From: Candidatus Aenigmatarchaeota archaeon
GTDB lineage: Archaea; Aenigmatarchaeota; Aenigmatarchaeia; CG10238-14; SCSR01
Reading direction: 5' to 3'
Assembly (NCBI GenBank): GCA_038999725.1
Contig: JAWBWS010000001.1
Span: forward strand, 41,620 to 105,619
Length of the DNA stretch: 64,000 bases
Shown in pieces: positions 25,407 through 59,369 of this stretch. The first letter of the stretch is position 1; each line of letters begins with the position of its first letter. The position numbers were made by a program, and so were the translations under genes. The notes under the pieces were generated by a model, which saw only the letters and a program-made list of their open reading frames with translations, was not told where the DNA came from and did no database searches.

Positions 25407-25518
25407 TAGCCCCGGGCAGATTCGAACTGCCGTGTTCAGGTTTCTTTCTTCATCTTTTATCCGAGCTTTAGACTTTAAGTCCAAAGCCTGACATCCTTGA
25501 CCGCTAGATGACGGGGCT
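25407..25518 (-). tRNA. tRNA-Gln(TTG) with 39-nt intron at 37/38 (25442-25480)
   Basis: Cloverleaf AGCCCCG/CGGGGCT, GTTCGAATC T-loop, strict BHB (CTTT/AAAG helix; GGA and AAA bulges); no encoded CCA. Confidence 0.93.
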
Positions 25519-37368: not shown

Positions 37369-37486
37369 GCAGGGGTAGCCAAGCGGTTAAAGGCGGCAGG
37401 CTCAAGTTTGGTTGAGCTTTGATCTGAGATGAAAGAAGGAACCTGCTGGCTTAGTGCCTTCGTGGGTTCGAATCCCACCCCCTGCA
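37369..37486 (+). tRNA. tRNA-Leu(CAA) with 34-nt intron at 37/38 (37407-37440)
   Basis: GCAGGGG/CCCCTGC acceptor; long variable arm; GCAGG/CCTGC anticodon stem; 84 nt mature. Confidence 0.92.
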
Positions 37487-45168: not shown

Positions 45169-45735
45169 CTATGGAGTAAGGCGCTTAATTTCGTAATAAG
45201 TGCAATCATTCTCTCTGTCTACAACCGCCCACACGAAAGTCGCCCTTATATTATGTGCAAGTCTCACTGCCCTCGACATTTCTGGTAAAGAAAAGGCTGC
45301 TTCTTCTGGAACAGCATGAACTACAAATTTTGTGTGTTCATGTGGGGCTTTTGGTCCTCTTACAAGCTTTACTCCTCTTTCGTAAACTCTGAAATGGGCA
45401 CCAAATTTAAAACCAGTTTTCACCAGATAGCCTCTCTCCCTCAAGTCGCGATAAACTACAAATTGAGGATGAAATTGGTTTACTATTTTTGTTGCAATTT
45501 CTAAAAACTCCTTCAAGTCTACATATCTCCTCTTTTCTCCCTCTTTTAAAAAAACTTTCATTCTCCCTTTCTCTAAAAGATAGGCTGCCTCCACGAGCTC
45601 CAATTCAAGCCTACTGGGATTTTCTTCAGGAACTGGTTTACCAAAACCAGAATCATCATAAAGTCTAACAGCATCCTTATCCCAAATTATTACTCTGTTT
45701 TCCACTAATTCTCCTTCCCAAATTTTCTCTGCCAT
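45169..45735 (-). CDS. endA: tRNA-intron (splicing) endonuclease, single-unit type
   Basis: LELVEAAYL; YRDLRERGY; KTGFKFGAHFRVY; RLAHNIR. Confidence 0.93.
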   Translation of the reverse strand: MAEKIWEGELVENRVIIWDKDAVRLYDDSGFGKPVPEENPSRLELELVEAAYLLEKGRMKVFLKEGEKRRYVDLKEFLEIATKIVNQFHPQFVVYRDLRERGYLVKTGFKFGAHFRVYERGVKLVRGPKAPHEHTKFVVHAVPEEAAFSLPEMSRAVRLAHNIRATFVWAVVDRENDCTYYEIKRLTP

Positions 45736-51615: not shown

Positions 51616-51709
51616 GCCTCGTTAGCTCAGTTGGTAGAGCATCCGAAGAGTTAAAACTCTGGTGAACCTTGTAAGCGGAGGGTCGTGGGTTCAAATCCCA
51701 CACGAGGCT
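51616..51709 (+). tRNA. tRNA-Thr(TGT) with 21-nt intron at 30/31 (51646-51666)
   Basis: GCCTCGT/ACGAGGC acceptor; strict BHB with CATC/GGTG helix and inner AGAG/CTCT stem; 73 nt mature. Confidence 0.92.
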
Positions 51710-51721
51710 TTCAAGCAAATT

Positions 51722-52756
51722 TTACAATAGATCTATGTCTAGTAATCTCGCCAAGTTTGAGAGATTTAAATTTTTTATTAGAGAAAAAAGGAATGGTTTA
51801 TCAGAAATTTTTGATAAAAACCATTTCACCAACAATCCTTTTTTTATGGGCCAGGCAAGTCTTCCTTTCCATTTTTTATCATAATTCTCCATCAAAAAAT
51901 CTCTTGAGAAATTGTTTGTTTCTATAGCTTTTACTATAGCATCTCCAGCAATCTCTGCGCAAATCTTATTGTACACCAGACCACCTGCAGAAAAAGGTTT
52001 AACCTGACAAGCAGCATCTCCTACAAGCAAAACATTATCAGAAACTGACTCTTCAATTAAACCATATCTTATCACATCACCTATCCTATTAGAAAAAATT
52101 TTTTTATCAAACCTTAATTTTAGGAAATTTTCCAAATAGTTGTTTGGGTTTTTGTTTGTCATTAAACCAACTCTAGCGATTTTTTCATTTTCGGGAACAA
52201 CCCAAGCAAAGGAGCCTGGAGCAATTTTGGAACCAAAATGGAGTTCAACACTCCTAGCTTCAAAATTTGACTCCACCTTCACTTGTAAAGCAAATAGAAA
52301 ATTTTTGGGCTGGTTTATTCCAGCTTTTTTGGCAACAGTTGAATTTGGGCCATCTGCACCTACTAGAACCTTACATTTAAATTTTCCCTTGTTAGTAAAA
52401 ATTGTGTTGCCTTTGAAATCTAAAAATCTTGTTGATGTTTTAATTTCAGCTCCAGCTTTTTCAGCCCTTCTTGCAAGCCATAAATCATATTTTCTCCTAT
52501 CTAAAACAAACATTCTTTCTCTTGAGTTAATTTCAAAAAATTTATCTCCAGAGAAAAATCTTGCTTTATCAATTTTGTTTAAAATCATATCTTTTGGAAT
52601 TTTACCTATCCTTTTACTAACCAAGCCTGTGCATTGAACAGGCTCTCCAATTTTTGAGTGCTCTTCTAATATTAAGACTGTGTACCCTTTTCTGGCAACA
52701 TTCTCACCTGTGATACAACCAGCAGGGCCTGCGCCAACAATAATACAATCGAACAA
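51722..52756 (-). CDS. Geranylgeranyl reductase family FAD oxidoreductase
   Basis: GAGPAG; CTG; VGADG; FAWVVP; VGDAA...GG. Confidence 0.9.
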   Translation of the reverse strand: MFDCIIVGAGPAGCITGENVARKGYTVLILEEHSKIGEPVQCTGLVSKRIGKIPKDMILNKIDKARFFSGDKFFEINSRERMFVLDRRKYDLWLARRAEKAGAEIKTSTRFLDFKGNTIFTNKGKFKCKVLVGADGPNSTVAKKAGINQPKNFLFALQVKVESNFEARSVELHFGSKIAPGSFAWVVPENEKIARVGLMTNKNPNNYLENFLKLRFDKKIFSNRIGDVIRYGLIEESVSDNVLLVGDAACQVKPFSAGGLVYNKICAEIAGDAIVKAIETNNFSRDFLMENYDKKWKGRLAWPIKKGLLVKWFLSKISDKPFLFSLIKNLNLSNLARLLDIDLL

Positions 52757-52901: not shown

Positions 52902-53647
52902 TTACCTACCAAAATTCCTTTGTATAGAGTTATACCATTTAATTGCCTTAATCAAATCTTTTTTGGAGAAATCTGGCCAAAGCTTTTTGGTAACATAAAT
53001 TTCTGCATAAGATGCTTGTATCAACATGAAGTTTGAAAGTCTGGAAAAGCCCCCAGTCCTTATCACAAGGTCAAGAGGAGCAGGAACAAGCAAATTAGCT
53101 TCTATGTCTTTTTCTGTTACTTCTACTTTACCAATTTTTATCGCTTTTTCTACAATTTTTTTTATCGCTTGAGTTAATTCAAATTTGCTTCCGTAGGCTA
53201 TCATTATGTTTAAAACCCTTTCCTGATATTTTGCGGTATTTTGCATTATTTTCCCCATAAGCTTAACGAGCTTTGGTGGTAATTTTTCAAGGTCGCCAAT
53301 AAACCTAACTTTGACTTGATATTTATCCAAAAATCCCCCTTCCTTCTTTTTCCCCCTCTCCCACTTTTTCAAATAATTGTAGAAAATCTTGAAAATTTCT
53401 TCCAATTCCCTTTTTGGTCTATTCAAGTTTTCTGTAGATAAAACATATGCCGAAACTTGTGGTATTCCTAACTCTAGACACCAGTTCAAAAACTCTTCAA
53501 ACTTTTTTGTGCTTGTGAGAGTTTATCCTCTCAACAATTTGCACCATATTTATGTCCTTCCCAAGGTTGTAAACCATGAAGTCTTGCCCATCTTCTGTTT
53601 CCATCCAAAATTATTCCTAGATGATTTGGGAGTGTCAACTCGTTCAT
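52902..53647 (-). CDS. uppS: cis-prenyltransferase UppS, split by a 32-nt BHB intron (exons 53647-53539 and 53506-52902; 237 aa spliced)
   Basis: Exon 1 carries PNHLGIILDGNRRWA...GH with GGAGGTG SD; exon 2 carries LSTEN, LDLVIRTGG, RLSNF, RNFGR; exon lengths sum to 714 nt. Confidence 0.92.
53507..53538 (-). other. Predicted archaeal BHB intron in uppS pre-mRNA
   Basis: GTGC-AA|A-[TTGT T GAGAG GATAAA CTCTC ACAA]-GCAC-AA|A; contains an in-frame TGA; excision restores GGT GCA AAA AAG TTT. Confidence 0.85.
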
Positions 53648-53716
53648 CGATACACCTCCATTTTTTCATAAATTTTAAATAATATAAATATTTTTAAAAA
53701 CAAAAAAGTTTGAAAT

Positions 53717-53820
53717 GGGGTCGTCGTCTAACCAGGTAGGACAGCAGGCTCCAGGTTCAATGGAGCTCTGACAAAAGATGAAGAAACCTGTATGTGAGGG
53801 TTCAAATCCCTCCGACCCCA
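53717..53820 (+). tRNA. tRNA-Trp(CCA) with 31-nt intron at 37/38 (53755-53785)
   Basis: GGGGTCG/CGACCCC acceptor; GCAGG/CCTGT stem; 73 nt mature. Confidence 0.92.
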
Positions 53821-53873: not shown

Positions 53874-54842
53874 ATGTCAATAGATGTGATTGGAGGGGGA
53901 CCAGCTGGTTCTGCTGCTTCGATTTTCTTAGCTAAAAGAGGATTTGATGATATAAGGCTATATGAAAAATCTCCTAAATTAAGAAAACCATGCGGTGGTG
54001 GTTTAACTTGGAGAGTTTTTGAAAGATATGGCTATCTCTTAGAGGGTTTGAAAACAAATCCAATCAAAACAATTATTGTTGATCTTGAGAATACTATGGT
54101 GAAATTTGAGTTCAAAAAAGCGGTGTTAAAAATAGTAGATCGCCTAAGACTCGACAAACATTTAAGAAAAATTGCCAAGAGCTTTGGTGTTAAAATAATT
54201 AAAAAAATGTTGAACCAAAAGAATTGAACAGTAAACTTGTGATTGATGCTAGAGGATTTGATTCAGAACAAGATTTTTCAATCGCAAAGGTTGCCATTTG
54301 TAAAATAAAGAATTCTGTCGCTACTTTTGTCTTTAGGGAAAAAACTCATAAGTAGAGGTTACTTTTGGATTTTTCCAATAAATAGAAAATTAGCTAACAT
54401 TGGTTGTGCTGGAACTAGAAATGGTCTTAAAACCACCTTAGATAAAGCTTTTGAATGGTTTCTTGAGGAAACTGGTGCTAAACCCTTAGTCATCATGAAG
54501 TATCCTGTGACTATGTACAATAAAATCAGCAATTTGATTTACAGAGATGGAGATAAAATTGTGGTTAAAGTTGGGGAGAGGGCTGGTCTTGTTAACCCGC
54601 TGACCGGAGAGGGAATTTATCATGCGATAAGAAGTTCAGAAATATTGAGTGAATGTATAGGGGACGATATTTTTTCATACCAGAAAAAGGTTGAGGATGA
54701 ATTTAGAAAAGAACTCACGATTTCCAAATTCTTGGTCGGTTCTTTTCCAATAATACCAAATTCTCTAAAAATTTTTTTATTAAAACACACCGTGAAAATT
54801 ATGTTCCCGTCTACTAAAATCATTGAAGAGTCTAGAAATTAA
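53874..54842 (+). pseudogene. Second geranylgeranyl reductase family gene with two compensating homopolymer frameshifts (or sequencing errors)
   Basis: GGGPAG and KPCGGG in ORF1; LVIDARG in the -1 frame between A7 (54201-54207) and A6 (54339-54344); GYFWIFP and GERAGLVNPLTGEGI in ORF2. Confidence 0.75.
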
Positions 54843-54843
54843 A

Positions 54844-55518
54844 TTATTTTTCTATCAATTCAACAAAAACCACTGGTCCCAAATTTTTCTTGATTATTCT
54901 TCCGTCTTTAGCTTTTTCCAGACAAATCAAATCTTGTTTGTAAGTTGGCCCCAAAGGTGTGACTAAAATTCCTCCCGGCTTAAGCTGATCAATCCAAGCT
55001 TTTGGTATTCTTTCCTTGGGAGCAGCACTTGAAACTATTTTATCAAATGGAGCATACTTTGGTAAGCCTTTTGAACCATCTCCCAAGATAAGCTTGACTT
55101 TGTCCCAATATCCTGTTCTCTTCAAATTTTTCTTTGCAAACTCGTAGGTTTCTGGGATTATTTCTATTCCATAAACTTCCCCCTTTTCACCAACAATTTC
55201 TTTCATGTAAGCTAATAAAATTCCTGAACCAGCACCAATCTCAAGGACTTTTTCTCCAGGCTTGAGCTTTAAGGCCGAAAGGAAGATTGCATGTATATGC
55301 TCTGCCGAAATTGTAACATTCCCCGGAATTGGTAGAGGTGTGTTTGAATAGGTTTGATCTCTATATTCTGGAGGAACAAAATCTTCCCTTTTAACCTTAA
55401 GCATTGCCCTCTTAACAGCAGGATATTTTATGTAGCCACAATTCTCCAAGAATTGAATCATCTCCTTTCTCTGTTTATCCAAGTCCACATTTATTATTTG
55501 GAAAAAAATAAATTTCAT
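54844..55518 (-). CDS. pcm: Protein-L-isoaspartate O-methyltransferase
   Basis: VKREDFVP; TISA; VLEIGAGSG; GDGSKG...APFDKI. Confidence 0.93.
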   Translation of the reverse strand: MKFIFFQIINVDLDKQRKEMIQFLENCGYIKYPAVKRAMLKVKREDFVPPEYRDQTYSNTPLPIPGNVTISAEHIHAIFLSALKLKPGEKVLEIGAGSGILLAYMKEIVGEKGEVYGIEIIPETYEFAKKNLKRTGYWDKVKLILGDGSKGLPKYAPFDKIVSSAAPKERIPKAWIDQLKPGGILVTPLGPTYKQDLICLEKAKDGRIIKKNLGPVVFVELIEK

Positions 55519-55520
55519 TT

Positions 55521-56339
55521 ATGCAGAGCCCTGAGCAAGTTGTTAACAGAATAAAGTCTGTCCAAGTTCAAGGTGCAAAAGAAATAGCTCTTTATTCTTT
55601 AAGATATTTAAGAAAGTTTTGTGAAAAATATGGTTTTGGATTGAAGTTTGAAGTCGTTGCTATGATGCTTGAAAATGCTAGACCAACCGCTGTTGTTTTA
55701 CACAATTGCTTAGAAATTCTCAAAAAAGAGAGGAAACTTAGAACAATCGACAAGCTTATAAAAGAATTACAAGAATCCACAAAAAAAATAGCAAAGATTG
55801 GACAAAAAATAGTAAAGAATAATCAAAAAATTTTGACTCATTGCCACTCGGGAGAAGCCTTATCTATAATAAAAGAAGCTGCAAGACTTGGTAAAAAAAT
55901 CTCTGTTTATGCAACAATTACAGAACCTTTAAAGCAAGGTATCAAAACAGCCCGAGAGCTGGCAAGAGAAAAAATTCCTGTAACTTTGGGTGAAGACATA
56001 GCTGTAGGTCATTTGATGTATTATGCTGATATTATAATCGTGGGCTCTGACGCCATCAGGAAAGAAGGTTTTGTCAATAAAGTTGGTACTTGGTTAATAG
56101 CAGAAGAAGCTAAAAGACATAAAAAACCTTTTTATGTGGTCGGGAGCCATTTCAAGTTCGACTCTAGAAAGAAGCTTGTACTTGAAGAAAGACCTGCTTC
56201 TGAAATTTTACCAAAACCGATAAGAGGGGTGAAGGTTAGAAATCCTGCTTTTGATCTTGTACCTTGGAGTTATGTCACAGCTGTAATAACTGATAAAGGG
56301 ATTTTTAAACCGGAAAAAATAAAAGAGATGATAAGATGA
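55521..56339 (+). CDS. Ribose-1,5-bisphosphate isomerase (eIF-2B family)
   Basis: VQGA; RPTAV; THCHS; VGSD; NKVGT; NPAFD; directly upstream of rbcL. Confidence 0.9.
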   Translation: MQSPEQVVNRIKSVQVQGAKEIALYSLRYLRKFCEKYGFGLKFEVVAMMLENARPTAVVLHNCLEILKKERKLRTIDKLIKELQESTKKIAKIGQKIVKNNQKILTHCHSGEALSIIKEAARLGKKISVYATITEPLKQGIKTARELAREKIPVTLGEDIAVGHLMYYADIIIVGSDAIRKEGFVNKVGTWLIAEEAKRHKKPFYVVGSHFKFDSRKKLVLEERPASEILPKPIRGVKVRNPAFDLVPWSYVTAVITDKGIFKPEKIKEMIR

Positions 56340-57556
56340 AATATTCAGACTATCTGGACTTCAAATATAAGCCTGGAAAAAATGATTTGATTTGTTGTTT
56401 TAGAGTTGAACCTGAAAAGGGAGAAAGTATAAAAGAGGTGGCAGGAGCTATTGCTGCTGAAAGTAGCATAGGAACTTGGACTGAAGTTTCAACAAAACCA
56501 TATGTAAAGAAATTAGCTGCAAGAGTTTTTGAAATAAAAGAAGATTTTGTGAAAATAGCTTACCCGCTTGACTTGTTTGAACCAGGAAACTTACCAAGCA
56601 TCTTGAGTGGAATTGCTGGGAATATTTTTGGTATGAAGCATCTGAAAAATTTAAAGTTGGTTGATGTGAAATTTCCAGAAAAAATTTTAAAAAGTTTTAA
56701 AGGACCTAAGTATGGGATAGAAGGAATAAGAAAGATTTTAAAAGTGAGGGGAAGACCATTGATAGGAACTATAATCAAGCCTAAGATTGGTCTTAAAAGT
56801 GACGATCATGCAAAAGTTGCTTACGAAGCTTGGGTTGGTGGTTGTGATCTTGTCAAGGATGATGAAAATTTGAGCTCTCAAAAATTCAATAAATTTGAAG
56901 AGAGGTTGAAAAAGACTTTTAAGATGAAGGAAAAAGCAGAAAGAGAAACTGGAGAAAAGAAGGCTTACATGATAAACATAACAGCTGAAACTGAAGAAAT
57001 GATCAAAAGGGCAAAAATTGTTGAAGAAATTGGAAATGAATATGTGATGATTGACGTTATTACAGTTGGGTGGTCTGCCTTACAGACTTTAAGAAATAAA
57101 GATTTTGATCTTGTGCTTCACGGTCATAGAGCTGGACATGCTATCATAACAAAAAACCCAAAACATGGGATTTCTATGAAGGTTTTGGCAAAGCTTATGA
57201 GGATTATTGGCATTGATCAATTACATGTTGGTACTGGAGTTGGAAAGATGTTTGAAAGTAAAGAAGAAGTGTTGGAAAATTGTAGGGTTTTGAAAGAAAA
57301 GATGTGGAAATTTAAGCCTGTGATGCCTGTTGCTTCTGGTGGTCTTCATCCTGCCTTAATTCCAAAAATTGTTGAAATTTTTGGAAAAAATGTTGTTATT
57401 CAAGCTGGTGGTGGAATACATGGTCACAAGCTCGGTACAAGAGCAGGGGCGATTGCCATGAGACAAGCAATTGATGCTGTAGAAAGAGGAATTCCTTTGA
57501 AAAAATATGCGGCAAGCCATAAAGAGCTTAAAGTTGCCTTAGAGGGGTTTAAATGA
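56336..57556 (+). CDS. rbcL: RubisCO form III
   Basis: AESSIGTW; GTIIKPKIGL; KDDEN; HRAGH; HVGT; GKM; SGG; QAGGG - all catalytic motifs present. Confidence 0.96.
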   Translation: MKYSDYLDFKYKPGKNDLICCFRVEPEKGESIKEVAGAIAAESSIGTWTEVSTKPYVKKLAARVFEIKEDFVKIAYPLDLFEPGNLPSILSGIAGNIFGMKHLKNLKLVDVKFPEKILKSFKGPKYGIEGIRKILKVRGRPLIGTIIKPKIGLKSDDHAKVAYEAWVGGCDLVKDDENLSSQKFNKFEERLKKTFKMKEKAERETGEKKAYMINITAETEEMIKRAKIVEEIGNEYVMIDVITVGWSALQTLRNKDFDLVLHGHRAGHAIITKNPKHGISMKVLAKLMRIIGIDQLHVGTGVGKMFESKEEVLENCRVLKEKMWKFKPVMPVASGGLHPALIPKIVEIFGKNVVIQAGGGIHGHKLGTRAGAIAMRQAIDAVERGIPLKKYAASHKELKVALEGFK

Positions 57557-57831
57557 AAAAACATCTATTTATATTGGTGTTACTTTTTGTGTCGGCTTTT
57601 TCAGTTATAGTTTTCCATAAACTAACAAAAAATATTTGTGTTTTTGACTTGGAGTGTAAGTGGAAAATAACAAATTGCTGCCCTGAGAGTATGGGAGCAA
57701 AATGGGAATGTGTAAACATAAAATCTTTTAATGAACTTGAATGCCCAAAATATGTGATTTGCCCGCAATTTTTATCTCCAAAACCAAATTTATCTTGTAA
57801 GTGTGAAAGGGGAGGTTGTGTGGTAAGATGA
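57553..57831 (+). CDS. Small secreted 10-Cys protein
   Basis: Signal/TM followed by 10 Cys in about 65 aa; ATGA overlaps at both ends. Confidence 0.75.
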   Translation: MKKHLFILVLLFVSAFSVIVFHKLTKNICVFDLECKWKITNCCPESMGAKWECVNIKSFNELECPKYVICPQFLSPKPNLSCKCERGGCVVR

Positions 57832-59369
57832 AAGTGAAGGTAAAAATCTTGGAGCTTGAAACAGGTGGCAAACCCATACTCATAGTTAACAAGGAAGATG
57901 CTGAAGAGTTGGGGATAAGAAGCTTGTCTAGAGTTGTGATAAAAAAGGGGGGAAGAAAGTTAACTGGAATAGTCAACATAACCACAAAACTTGTTGATCA
58001 AGGGAAGATTGGTGTTAGTGAAAGTGTTGCCAAAAATTTGAATTTAACCAACAGGGATGAAGTAGAAATTGAAGTTGCAAGATTTCCCTCTTCCCTCCAA
58101 CACATTAAAAATAAACTCAAGGGAAAAAAGTTGAGTTATGAAGAAATTTTTGAAATAGTTAGGGATGTTGTTGAAGGAAATTTGAGTGAAGCTGAAATTG
58201 CCTCTTTTGTTGTTGCTTTGGAAACAAAAGGTTTAGATTTGGATGAAGCAGCAAGCTTATCTTTAGCAATGGTTGAAACTGGAAGAAAGCTTGAACTTAA
58301 GAAGAAAGTTATAGTTGATAAACATAGCATAGGGGGGATTGCTGGGGATAAAACTACTCTGCTTGTTGTGCCTATTGTTGCAGCTGCTGGCTTAACTATA
58401 CCGAAGACTTCCTCTCGAGCTATAACAGGAGCTGCTGGAACTGCTGATAGGGCTGAATGTTTGATGCCTGTCAATTTAAGCATAGAGGAGATGAAGAAGG
58501 TTATCGAAAAAACAAATGGTTGTATAGCTTGGGGTGGAGCTCTGCATTTAGCTCCTGCTGATGATGTGTTCATCCAAGCAGAATATTCTTTAACCATAGA
58601 CCCATTACTTTTACCTTCTATAATGGCAAAGAAAAAGGCTGTTGGCGCCAAATTCTTGGTTGTTGACATACCAACAGGAAGAGGAGCAAAGATGAAAACC
58701 ATAGGGGATGCTAGCTTGCTTGCAAAAGACTTCATCGAGCTTGGTAAACGATTGGAAATAAAAACTAGATGTGCTATAACAGATGGTGAGCAACCTCTAG
58801 GCTATGCAATTGGTCCTGCCTTGGAAGCAAAAGAAGCTCTAGAAGTTTTAATGGGAAGAAAAGTTCAAGATCTTGTAGATAAAGCTGCTCACCTAGCAGG
58901 AATTTTGTTTGAGATGGTTGGGAAGAAAAATGGTTATAAGTTAGCTCTTGAAATCTTGAAATCTGGAAAAGCTGAAAGAAAGATGAGGGAAATAATTGCA
59001 GTTCAAGGAGGGAATGAAAATATAAAACCAGAGGAAATTCAGGTAGGAGCAAACAAACTTGATATAATAGCTGAAAAAAGTGGTATAGTCCTTTGGCTTA
59101 ATAATGCTGGAATAAATGAAGTTGCAAGAGCTGCAGGATCACCAAAAGATAAAGGTGCTGGCATATTGCTTTATAAGAAGCTGAATGACAAAGTCTCTAA
59201 AGGCGAAAAATTGTTGACAATATATGCAGAAAAATCAAGAAAGCTGGAGAGGGCGAGAGAAGTTTTTGAAGAGGGGAATGTAATTGGTATTGGTGATAGG
59301 AGAGAAATGTTAATTCAACAAATAGAAGAAATTCCAGTACACAAAAAGACTTTCATCCTTGAAAGATAA
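57828..59369 (+). CDS. AMP phosphorylase (thymidine phosphorylase family)
   Basis: DKHSIGGIAGDKT; KTSSRAITGAAGTAD; QPLGYAIGPALEA; N-terminal double-psi-barrel-like extension. Confidence 0.95.
   Translation: MKVKVKILELETGGKPILIVNKEDAEELGIRSLSRVVIKKGGRKLTGIVNITTKLVDQGKIGVSESVAKNLNLTNRDEVEIEVARFPSSLQHIKNKLKGKKLSYEEIFEIVRDVVEGNLSEAEIASFVVALETKGLDLDEAASLSLAMVETGRKLELKKKVIVDKHSIGGIAGDKTTLLVVPIVAAAGLTIPKTSSRAITGAAGTADRAECLMPVNLSIEEMKKVIEKTNGCIAWGGALHLAPADDVFIQAEYSLTIDPLLLPSIMAKKKAVGAKFLVVDIPTGRGAKMKTIGDASLLAKDFIELGKRLEIKTRCAITDGEQPLGYAIGPALEAKEALEVLMGRKVQDLVDKAAHLAGILFEMVGKKNGYKLALEILKSGKAERKMREIIAVQGGNENIKPEEIQVGANKLDIIAEKSGIVLWLNNAGINEVARAAGSPKDKGAGILLYKKLNDKVSKGEKLLTIYAEKSRKLERAREVFEEGNVIGIGDRREMLIQQIEEIPVHKKTFILER

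Follow-up and report, generated by a model that had tools for sequence, protein, structure and literature searches.

We analysed a 64,000-nt stretch of contig JAWBWS010000001.1 of a Candidatus Aenigmatarchaeota archaeon (hereafter the window, to which all positions given without a locus label refer), in which the coding sequence of a minus-strand uppS gene is split by a 32-nt insert with features of an archaeal bulge-helix-bulge (BHB) intron. The gene is essential, and its product UppS is a cis-prenyltransferase that makes the polyprenyl glycan carrier. Labels beginning with L denote loci of relatives, and those beginning with P denote proteins. The gene and its insert comprise the following features, in the direction of transcription.

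53653..53659, minus strand: Shine-Dalgarno (SD) sequence GGAGGTG of uppS, 5 nt 5′ of the ATG, read from the sequence
53539..53647, minus strand: predicted uppS exon 1, from ATG (53647-53645) to ...GGTGCAA; codons 1-36 and the first two bases of codon 37
53541..53544, minus strand: 5′ strand of the predicted central helix, GUGC, exonic, partner 53509-53512
53538..53540, minus strand: 5′ bulge AAA, predicted 5′ cut between 53539 and 53538
53507..53538, minus strand: candidate BHB-type mini-intron, "uppS intron 2", 32 nt, A UUGU U GAGAG GAUAAA CUCUC ACAA GCAC AA, with an in-frame TGA at 53533-53531
53509..53512, minus strand: 3′ strand of the predicted central helix, GCAC, intronic, partner 53541-53544
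53506..53508, minus strand: 3′ "bulge" AAA, predicted 3′ cut between 53507 and 53506, followed by a weak, mismatched outer helix
52902..53506, minus strand: predicted uppS exon 2, from the last base of codon 37 to the TAA stop (52904-52902); PF01255 on homologues

Exon 1, which contains the catalytic DGNRRW motif, is translated as MNELTLPNHLGIILDGNRRWARLHGLQPWEGHKYGA and then runs through AAT TGT into the TGA at 53533-53531, and the C-terminal part of UppS is encoded by a 195-aa open reading frame (ORF; 53489..52902) in a different frame. Start codon, SD and catalytic motif are all retained. Excising 53538..53507 would join GGTGCAA|AAAAGTTT and yields a collinear protein of 237 aa (...GHKYGA-KKFEEFLNW..., region GHKYGAKKFEEFLNW); the predicted spliced junction in the transcript reads GGUGCAAAAAAGUUU and the junction peptide GHKYGAKKFEEF (GHKYGAKKFEEFLNWCLELGIPQVSAYVLSTENLNRPK region). 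This product has the DGNRRW motif and a length within the range of about 230-250 aa expected of UppS and cis-prenyltransferases, and it is 81-86% identical to full-length UppS bearing PF01255 from Aenigmatarchaeota metagenome-assembled genomes (MAGs) of the DPANN superphylum.

The 4-bp central helix and the 5′ AAA bulge are clear in the window and lie beside an inner stem of 9 bp (4+5) with one bulged U (UUGU-U-GAGAG / CUCUC-ACAA, 53537-53528 with 53521-53513); RNAfold of 53565..53490 on the minus strand gave a minimum free energy of -15 kcal/mol. For the window sequence alone the fold z-score was -2.05 and 6 of 200 shuffled sequences folded equally well, while a generic scan of the window for BHB motifs that rescue an ORF did not rise above background, with 30-32 candidates on each strand and 19-26 once the cut sites were shifted. 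The window by itself therefore separates the insert from chance only weakly, and it is the comparative evidence that decides. No Rfam family matched at the insert site, and tblastn of the spliced UppS against the window found no second uppS.

An earlier sequence-only reading of this DNA had proposed that a 32-nt BHB intron splits uppS, and all of its coordinates and sequence statements hold. The N-truncated ORF was found again, with the SD and DGNRRW upstream of it in another frame; RNAfold reproduced the GTGC/GCAC helix, the AAA bulges and the 9-bp inner stem; and cutting after the second bulge base was computed to remove 32 nt, including the TGA, and to give the 237-aa protein, matching the junction of an intronless relative (L008). 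The reading had also placed the DNA in a DPANN-type archaeon, in agreement with best UppS matches to Aenigmatarchaeota, and had named a second intact uppS as a sign that this copy was a pseudogene; none occurs in the 64 kb.

The same site in relatives

Several of the UppS proteins matched in databases were N-truncated (82% coverage), and every one whose locus was fetched has an insert at the identical codon. These inserts come from independent assemblies of several JGI, ENA, NCBI and Logan samples and, together with that of the window, take the following forms.

Window: 32 nt, inner stem GAGAG/CUCUC
L001-L007 and L035-L038 (several JGI samples, one ENA sample): 30 nt, ATTGTTGAGGCATAGACCTCACAAGCACAA, in-frame TGA
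L014/L015: 29 nt, inner stem GGGC/GCCC, central helix GUGC/GCAU
L016: 52 nt, UUGC/GCAA in place of UUGU/ACAA
L045-L047: 13-nt micro-intron, no inner stem, perfect 5-bp exon-exon helix GCACG/CGUGC

Given that the lengths leave different remainders on division by three (window 2, 30 nt 0, 29 nt 2, 52 nt 1, 13 nt 1), the inserts are not translated, and the same cut rule restores a collinear, full-length UppS in every variant. The intronless L008 (86% amino acid identity) has the predicted ligation product, GGTGCAAAAAA (GGTGCAAAAAATTTC), at the site; the DNA around the putative target site of intronless uppS (L008 or L010) is GGTGCAAAAA. Comparison of uppS from relatives for presence or absence of the insert, a check named in the sequence-only reading, thus shows inserts of 13-52 nt at the same codon and none in L008. 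A scan of metagenome DNA with the pattern AAGGNCAYMRNNNNGGTGCAAATTG returned only two loci already known and 10 chance matches.

Covariation was assessed on the five distinct variants with an inner stem, in a trimmed alignment. Every cell of the central helix and of the two inner helices was paired (100%); three pairs had changed on both sides, and the central helix had undergone one G-C to G.U change. Overall 85% of cells were paired, compared with 29-49% when the partner strand was slid, and the covariation was matched by 1 of 500 shuffles.

Both exons are under strong purifying selection: ratios of non-synonymous to synonymous substitution rates (dN/dS) were 0.03-0.2 overall, with 0.05-0.2 for exon 1 against relatives. 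Between L001 and L006, exon 1 differs by nine synonymous and two non-synonymous changes (dN/dS 0.045; exon 2, 0.033), and between the window and L014 the values were 0.07 for exon 1 and 0.09 for exon 2. Synonymous divergence (dS) among the intron-bearing lineages ranges from 0.3 to above 1, near saturation, yet 11 loci have the 30-nt intron in identical form and a twelfth differs by a single loop base, so that the intron is more constrained than synonymous sites. Given its conservation at the same codon at saturated synonymous divergence, the compensatory changes in its helices and the low dN/dS of both exons, the insert seems to be functional rather than a lesion in a pseudogene.

A second site in uppS and a candidate intron in PCMT

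A further insert, intron 1, lies inside the DGN|RRW motif in L014/L015, L016, L017, L039-L044 and L045-L047, with lengths of 33, 26, 21, 17, 21, 19, 20 and 14 nt. The variants have in common an AYGG/CYRU central helix, a 5′ bulge of AAA or AAU, and the unchanged cut register, and removing the insert restores GAY GGA AAY MGN AGR TGG (DGNRRW) in all of them. That of L017 forms a textbook helix-bulge-helix-bulge-helix (outer 6 bp, central 4 bp, inner 5 bp), and among relatives the full canonical BHB motif occurs there and in L045 (outer 5 bp). The third base of the Asp codon (GAU/GAC) pairs with an intron 1 base as U-A, U.G or C-G, never as C-A. Across nine variants 86% of cells were paired, against 32-53% in slid controls, and the covariation score of 0.342 (slid controls at most 0.124) was reached by none of 500 shuffles.

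A homology-filtered intron scan over the window and the relatives' DNA returned the uppS introns and one more, in the gene for protein-L-isoaspartate methyltransferase (PCMT); within the window only uppS passed. The PCMT inserts share the pattern CCCC AU|A ... GGGG AA|A with outer UGCA/UGCA.

L004, 168-182: candidate PCMT micro-intron, 15 nt
L006, 1309-1323: candidate PCMT micro-intron, 15 nt
L009, 582-595: candidate PCMT micro-intron, 14 nt

Each brings a stop or a frameshift, and with it taken out the sequence matches intact PCMT genes exactly, among them that of the window (54844-55518). Over the three sites, two in uppS and one in PCMT, 15 insert lengths are each exactly resolved by one cut rule. 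The second uppS site, the PCMT intron and the homing-endonuclease link described below were absent from the sequence-only reading; a search for other split ORFs with BHB-bounded inserts, which it had named as a check, gave PCMT in L004, L006 and L009 and, in the window, none besides uppS.

The splicing endonuclease and the tRNA introns

The window encodes a tRNA splicing endonuclease and, according to Rfam, an Archaea_SRP RNA and six tRNA genes, all six with introns. The tRNAs were called by Rfam, given that ARAGORN in bacterial mode misses or mis-reads intron-containing tRNAs. The endonuclease and the two tRNAs used to check the cut rule are:

45169..45735, minus strand: EndA, tRNA-intron (splicing) endonuclease, alpha-type, 188 aa, Pfam PF02778 and PF01974
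25407..25518, minus strand: tRNA-Gln(UUG), canonical 39-nt BHB intron, ucagg CUUU gg|a...AAAG aa|a ccuga
51616..51709, plus strand: tRNA-Thr(UGU), non-canonical 21-nt BHB intron in the anticodon stem, gag CAUC cg|a AGAGUUAAAACUCU GGUG aa|c cuu

EndA matches that of M. jannaschii (1a79) and that of M. kandleri (5x89) over its full length, has 4fz2 and 3p1z as further PDB relatives, and carries short insertions relative to the M. jannaschii enzyme (GKPVPEENPSR and VKLVRGPKAPHEH). Cutting after the second bulge base turned both tRNA-Gln and tRNA-Thr into 73-nt tRNAs with a normal anticodon arm, and the non-canonical intron of tRNA-Thr hints at an EndA of broad specificity.

The introns of tRNA-Trp(CCA) (53717-53820, plus strand), tRNA-Leu(CAA) (37369-37486, plus strand) and tRNA-Gln(UUG) (25407-25518, minus strand) are 35-39 nt long and have a common AGAUGAAGAA-like sequence near their 3′ end, preceded by CUGA in two of them; the identities of these tRNAs were read from their anticodon loops. 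These elements resemble box D′/C′ (K-loop), and the BHB motifs of the three tRNAs are partly mismatched.

Predicted splicing of the uppS pre-mRNA

Taking these lines of evidence together, we put at about 85% the probability that 53538..53507 is an archaeal BHB-type intron within the uppS coding sequence, spliced by the endonuclease. The gene would be transcribed with the insert, and the pre-mRNA would fold around the GUGC/GCAC helix, with the AAA bulge and the 9-bp inner stem on the 5′ strand and AAA and a weak exon-exon helix on the 3′ strand. EndA (45169-45735) would cut after the second base of each AAA, and an RNA ligase, RtcB in archaea, would join the exons (GGUGCAA|AAAAGUUU) into an mRNA for the 237-aa UppS; unspliced RNA would give only a 38-residue peptide ending at the UGA within the intron. 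We infer that EndA cuts the insert, that the exons are ligated and that the organism depends on both steps. The sequence-only reading had predicted a functional intron, which insert conservation, compensatory changes and dN/dS values of 0.03-0.2 support, and its assignment of EndA to 45169-45735 agrees with the two Pfam domains.

Several observations weigh against this interpretation. The outer helix is poor in the window, where it begins beside the 3′ bulge with a G.A pair and is missing from the RNAfold prediction; over the five variants compared, each of which has G.A in this first position, it is 62.5% paired. This leaves the 3′ cut site without a clean 3-nt bulge, and the predicted intron 2 motif is relaxed on its 3′ side in the window's clade, as the sequence-only reading had noted from the weak outer helix. 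Relaxed BHB motifs reportedly require endonucleases of the (alpha-beta)2 or epsilon2 type (PMC6379350); an enzyme able to cut them would be expected to have a CSL/ASL-like loop. The window has one alpha-type subunit and no second EndA subunit or paralog. RtcB ligase was not found among the 20 window ORFs scanned with Pfam. The single-copy result for uppS covers 64 kb of genome; a scan of a genome collection, which reaches close relatives only, found one uppS per MAG. No full-length protein identical to a predicted spliced product was among the top matches in protein collections, all of which belonged to other lineages; P0002 is an intronless genomic relative, not a transcript. Finally, the two-intron uppS of L016 has no ATG, GTG or TTG between the upstream stop and DGNRRW, and only CTG or ATA follows the SD GAGGTGAT (about 2004-2010); the gene copy could be defective, start at a non-canonical codon or have some other feature that has escaped recognition.

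A LAGLIDADG endonuclease gene beside intron-bearing uppS

In some relatives a free-standing gene lies directly upstream of the intron-bearing uppS and encodes a 401-411-aa protein with helix-turn-helix motifs and a double LAGLIDADG core (ILGVLCGDG ... LRGFFDSEG; PF14528, LAGLIDADG_3). Its positions are:

L007, 277-1497: LAGLIDADG gene
L014/L015, 735-1907: LAGLIDADG gene
L016, 735-1910: LAGLIDADG gene
L045, 1658-2863: LAGLIDADG gene
L046, 2501-3727: LAGLIDADG gene
L047, 1013-2239: LAGLIDADG gene

In all six distinct loci with this gene (L007/L031, L014, L015, L016, L045 and L046/L047), a uppS with intron 2 follows 100-140 nt downstream. When loci were looked up blind through the endonuclease alone (P0200, P0201), the next gene in 3/3 contigs, 115-137 nt downstream, was an N-truncated, two-intron UppS. 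The ortholog group is small, with 56-71% identity among its members and the next matches at 35%, and no homolog was present in the window, in L001-type loci or in any intronless locus examined.

The comparison of L016 with the intronless L010 is consistent with transfer of a segment. In place of L010 1941-2103, L016 has a segment (634-2181) that comprises the endonuclease gene, its promoter region, exon 1 and both introns; the two loci are 90-95% identical on both flanks of the replaced segment, and within about 3 nt of the intron 2 junction identity climbs abruptly to about 95%, from about 65-70%, with a dS of 2.1 in exon 1 and 0.28 in exon 2. Given that L010 exon 1 is common to the intronless relatives L011 and L012, L016 would be the recipient. 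Between L045 and L007, identity is 57% for the endonuclease and only 36% for UppS.

This pattern is what a free-standing homing endonuclease would leave if it targeted the intron site and moved with the intron, a reading to which we give even odds or marginally less. The LAGLIDADG protein would cut intronless uppS at the GA|K codon, and repair would copy the endonuclease gene together with the intron; the intron would break up the target site and hence act as immunity, and it would cost the host nothing, being removed from the mRNA by the host's tRNA-splicing endonuclease. Such a two-part selfish element would be new to Archaea, and we propose it tentatively, with its chances a shade under even. 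The window intron, a copy without the endonuclease gene, would then be the surviving half of a mobile cassette, for which we consider the odds to be balanced. Scans of IMG/VR for the endonuclease and for the intron gave no match and thus no sign of a virus carrying the cassette.

The cassette reading is tempered by the frequent occurrence of intron 1 with no endonuclease gene nearby and by shared ancestry, which inflates the 6/6 association. It is a serious contender, if one we hold to fall short of even odds, that the insert is spliced but present by vertical inheritance and drift only, as assumed for cbf5, and that the LAGLIDADG gene is a chance neighbour or a regulator. The window and the L001-type loci carry the intron without the endonuclease gene, many loci with intron 1 lack such a gene in their flanks, and the cleavage step of the cassette is putative. 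What vertical descent and drift would leave unexplained is the presence of intron 2 in 6/6 endonuclease loci, three of them found blind, the lack of the endonuclease gene in every intronless locus examined, the end of the replaced L016/L010 segment within about 3 nt of the intron 2 site, and the discordance between endonuclease (57%) and UppS (36%) identities in L045 and L007.

Three further observations concern mobile elements around uppS. The UppS proteins of intronless P0002 and intron-bearing L006 differ at 5 of about 200 residues in exon 2 and at 4 of 32 in exon 1, a mosaic like that of L016 and L010. A different, 194-aa LAGLIDADG_3 protein is encoded at L044 346-930 (minus strand) beside a uppS with intron 1 only, and may represent a second endonuclease-intron pairing, seen in one case only. 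Downstream of uppS and the geranylgeranyl reductase (GGR) gene in L045 (4845-5363 and beyond), a polyprenyl synthase gene is called as a 799-aa protein with Intein_splicing and LAGLIDADG_3 matches, which would be an intein in an isoprenoid gene of the same cluster.

Alternatives to splicing

A pseudogene or other DNA-level lesion, with uppS inactivated by a small palindromic insertion that nothing removes, or only seemingly split through an artefact of assembly or sequencing, is very unlikely. The neighbouring GGR-like gene (53874-54842, plus strand), with two frameshifts at A-runs, indicates that decay or homopolymer problems occur, the 3′ end of the intron falls within an A6 run, and DPANN genomes are reduced. 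However, the insert recurs at the same codon in independent assemblies, both exons keep start, SD and catalytic motif at low dN/dS and saturating dS, and the intron is more conserved than synonymous sites, with stems that change by compensatory pairs; as for an artefact, long ORFs of the window are intact (for example one of 1954 aa). A model of two homopolymer errors (AAA to AA and A6 to A5), which would turn the insert into a 10-aa in-frame insertion (IVERINSHKH), was ruled out by the out-of-frame variants of 13, 29 and 52 nt and by the TGA in the 30-nt form.

Translational recoding, with the insert staying in the mRNA and being passed by ribosomal bypass as in T4 gene 60, by frameshifting or by stop read-through, has a slightly smaller chance still. 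As in gene 60, a stable hairpin follows right after the break and a stop lies two codons on, and the 30-nt variant would stay in frame with an AAU-to-AAU hop or UGA read-through. The window, however, has no matching landing codon: for take-off at GCA the second GCA is out of frame, for take-off at AAU the landing site AAA AAG has no such codon, and all three frames are closed across the insert unless two shifts occur. No take-off and landing pairs are common to the 13- to 52-nt variants and the inserts at the DGN|RRW and PCMT sites, which do have the 4-bp helix and the cut register in common, and tRNAs of the same genome use the identical cut rule.

Least probable of those weighed is a split enzyme, in which a 38-aa N-terminal peptide and the product of the 195-aa C-terminal ORF are translated independently and then assemble. 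Gene callers do start the 195-aa ORF at a TTG, and phage genes split by endonuclease insertions can yield working enzymes (PMC2988022), but no SD precedes TTG 53489, which is the conserved Leu of FLNW; two-intron loci would have the N-terminal part in three pieces (17 and 20 codons), broken through DGNRRW; and the conserved helices and exact cut register would be left unexplained. A self-splicing group I or group II intron was rejected, given inserts of 13-52 nt against a ribozyme core of hundreds of nucleotides and no Rfam match.

Relation to known systems

Archaeal rRNA BHB introns carry LAGLIDADG homing endonucleases (such as I-DmoI) and are mobile by homing into intronless alleles. The predicted uppS system likewise pairs a BHB intron with a LAGLIDADG endonuclease, but while I-DmoI-type ORFs lie inside long rRNA introns, the inserts here are 13-52 nt long, contain no ORF and interrupt a protein gene, and the endonuclease is free-standing about 120 nt upstream.

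The closest counterpart among mRNAs is the cbf5 pre-mRNA intron of Crenarchaeota (Watanabe 2002; Yokobori 2009, PMC2738675), which is also short, BHB-bounded, located in coding sequence and a substrate of the tRNA splicing endonuclease (predicted here), varies by gain and loss between relatives, and causes its gene to be mis-annotated as split or truncated. The uppS inserts differ in their host genes (uppS, PCMT), in the lineage (DPANN Aenigmatarchaeota, not Crenarchaeota), in numbering up to two per gene, in micro-introns down to 13-14 nt and in the link to a homing-endonuclease gene in relatives; the uppS and cbf5 introns are of one mechanism class and separate intron families. With archaeal pre-tRNA BHB introns (Marck & Grosjean 2003; PMC6379350, PMC4090602) they share the 4-bp helix, the cut register and, with the 3′ side relaxed in the window, the 3-nt bulges, and relaxed pre-tRNA forms that lack one flanking helix are known (PMC6379350, PMC4090602). 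Unlike these, the substrate would be an mRNA that lacks a tRNA body, codons constrain the exonic side of each helix, and synonymous codon choice covaries with the intron.

The arrangement of a free-standing endonuclease gene adjoining a gene whose intron would interrupt its target resembles "collaborative homing", described in a secondary account for F-CphI beside the intron-containing psbA of cyanophage S-PM2 (Zeng 2009, via PMC6083498); there, too, the endonuclease and the intron move together and endonuclease-less intron copies exist, and those introns are self-splicing group I introns of phages, unlike the EndA-dependent intron of an archaeal host and the putative cleavage of an intronless allele proposed here. 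T4 mobE is a trans-homing case (PMC2790892).

Schwarz 2020 gives cbf5 as the only other reported mRNA BHB intron beside that study's own 5′ untranslated region intron in Haloferax HVO_1309 (PMC7714728), and Nucleic Acids Research papers of 2018 and 2025 cite only cbf5 work for pre-mRNA (PMC5829648, PMC12397907). The openly accessible literature searched held no report on uppS, PCMT or DPANN mRNA introns. The mechanism class is known; as far as that literature shows, what is new lies in the host genes and lineage, the micro-introns and the link to an endonuclease gene.

In the same literature, endonuclease-spliced introns in coding sequence were previously described for one gene, cbf5, in one phylum; the predicted introns reported here occupy three sites in two unrelated housekeeping genes, and exon codon choice co-evolves with the intron. 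At least a dozen N-truncated public UppS entries appear to be intron-split genes annotated as truncated or broken, and the sequence-only reading had anticipated such mis-annotation: database calls in relatives are N-truncated "UppS" of 190-198 aa. Supposed gene losses of this kind distort the metabolic reconstructions behind arguments for symbiotic dependence. Synthesis of the glycan-carrier lipid would depend on EndA and an RNA ligase. If the cassette reading is true, it would offer a concrete route by which protein-coding genes gain endonuclease-spliced introns, and the LAGLIDADG link bears on intron origin and on the archaeal ancestry of eukaryotic non-spliceosomal mRNA splicing of the HAC1/XBP1 type.

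Neighbouring genes

An intact GGR gene lies at 51722-52756, and a second, GGR-like FAD oxidoreductase is spread over three frames at 53874-54842 on the plus strand (53874-54227, 54224-54355 and 54327-54842). Its two frameshifts, of one base each and with no BHB motif, fall in runs of seven (A7, about 54206-54212) and six A residues (A6, about 54332-54337). It is likely a decaying paralog, with transcriptional slippage or homopolymer error as other possible sources of the frameshifts. Further along the plus strand, 55521-59369 encodes an IF-2B-family protein (55521-56339), a RuBisCO large subunit (56336-57556) and a glycosyl-transferase-3/PYNP_C protein (57816-59369), a set that we take to be the archaeal AMP/nucleoside salvage pathway with form III RuBisCO, often noted in DPANN.

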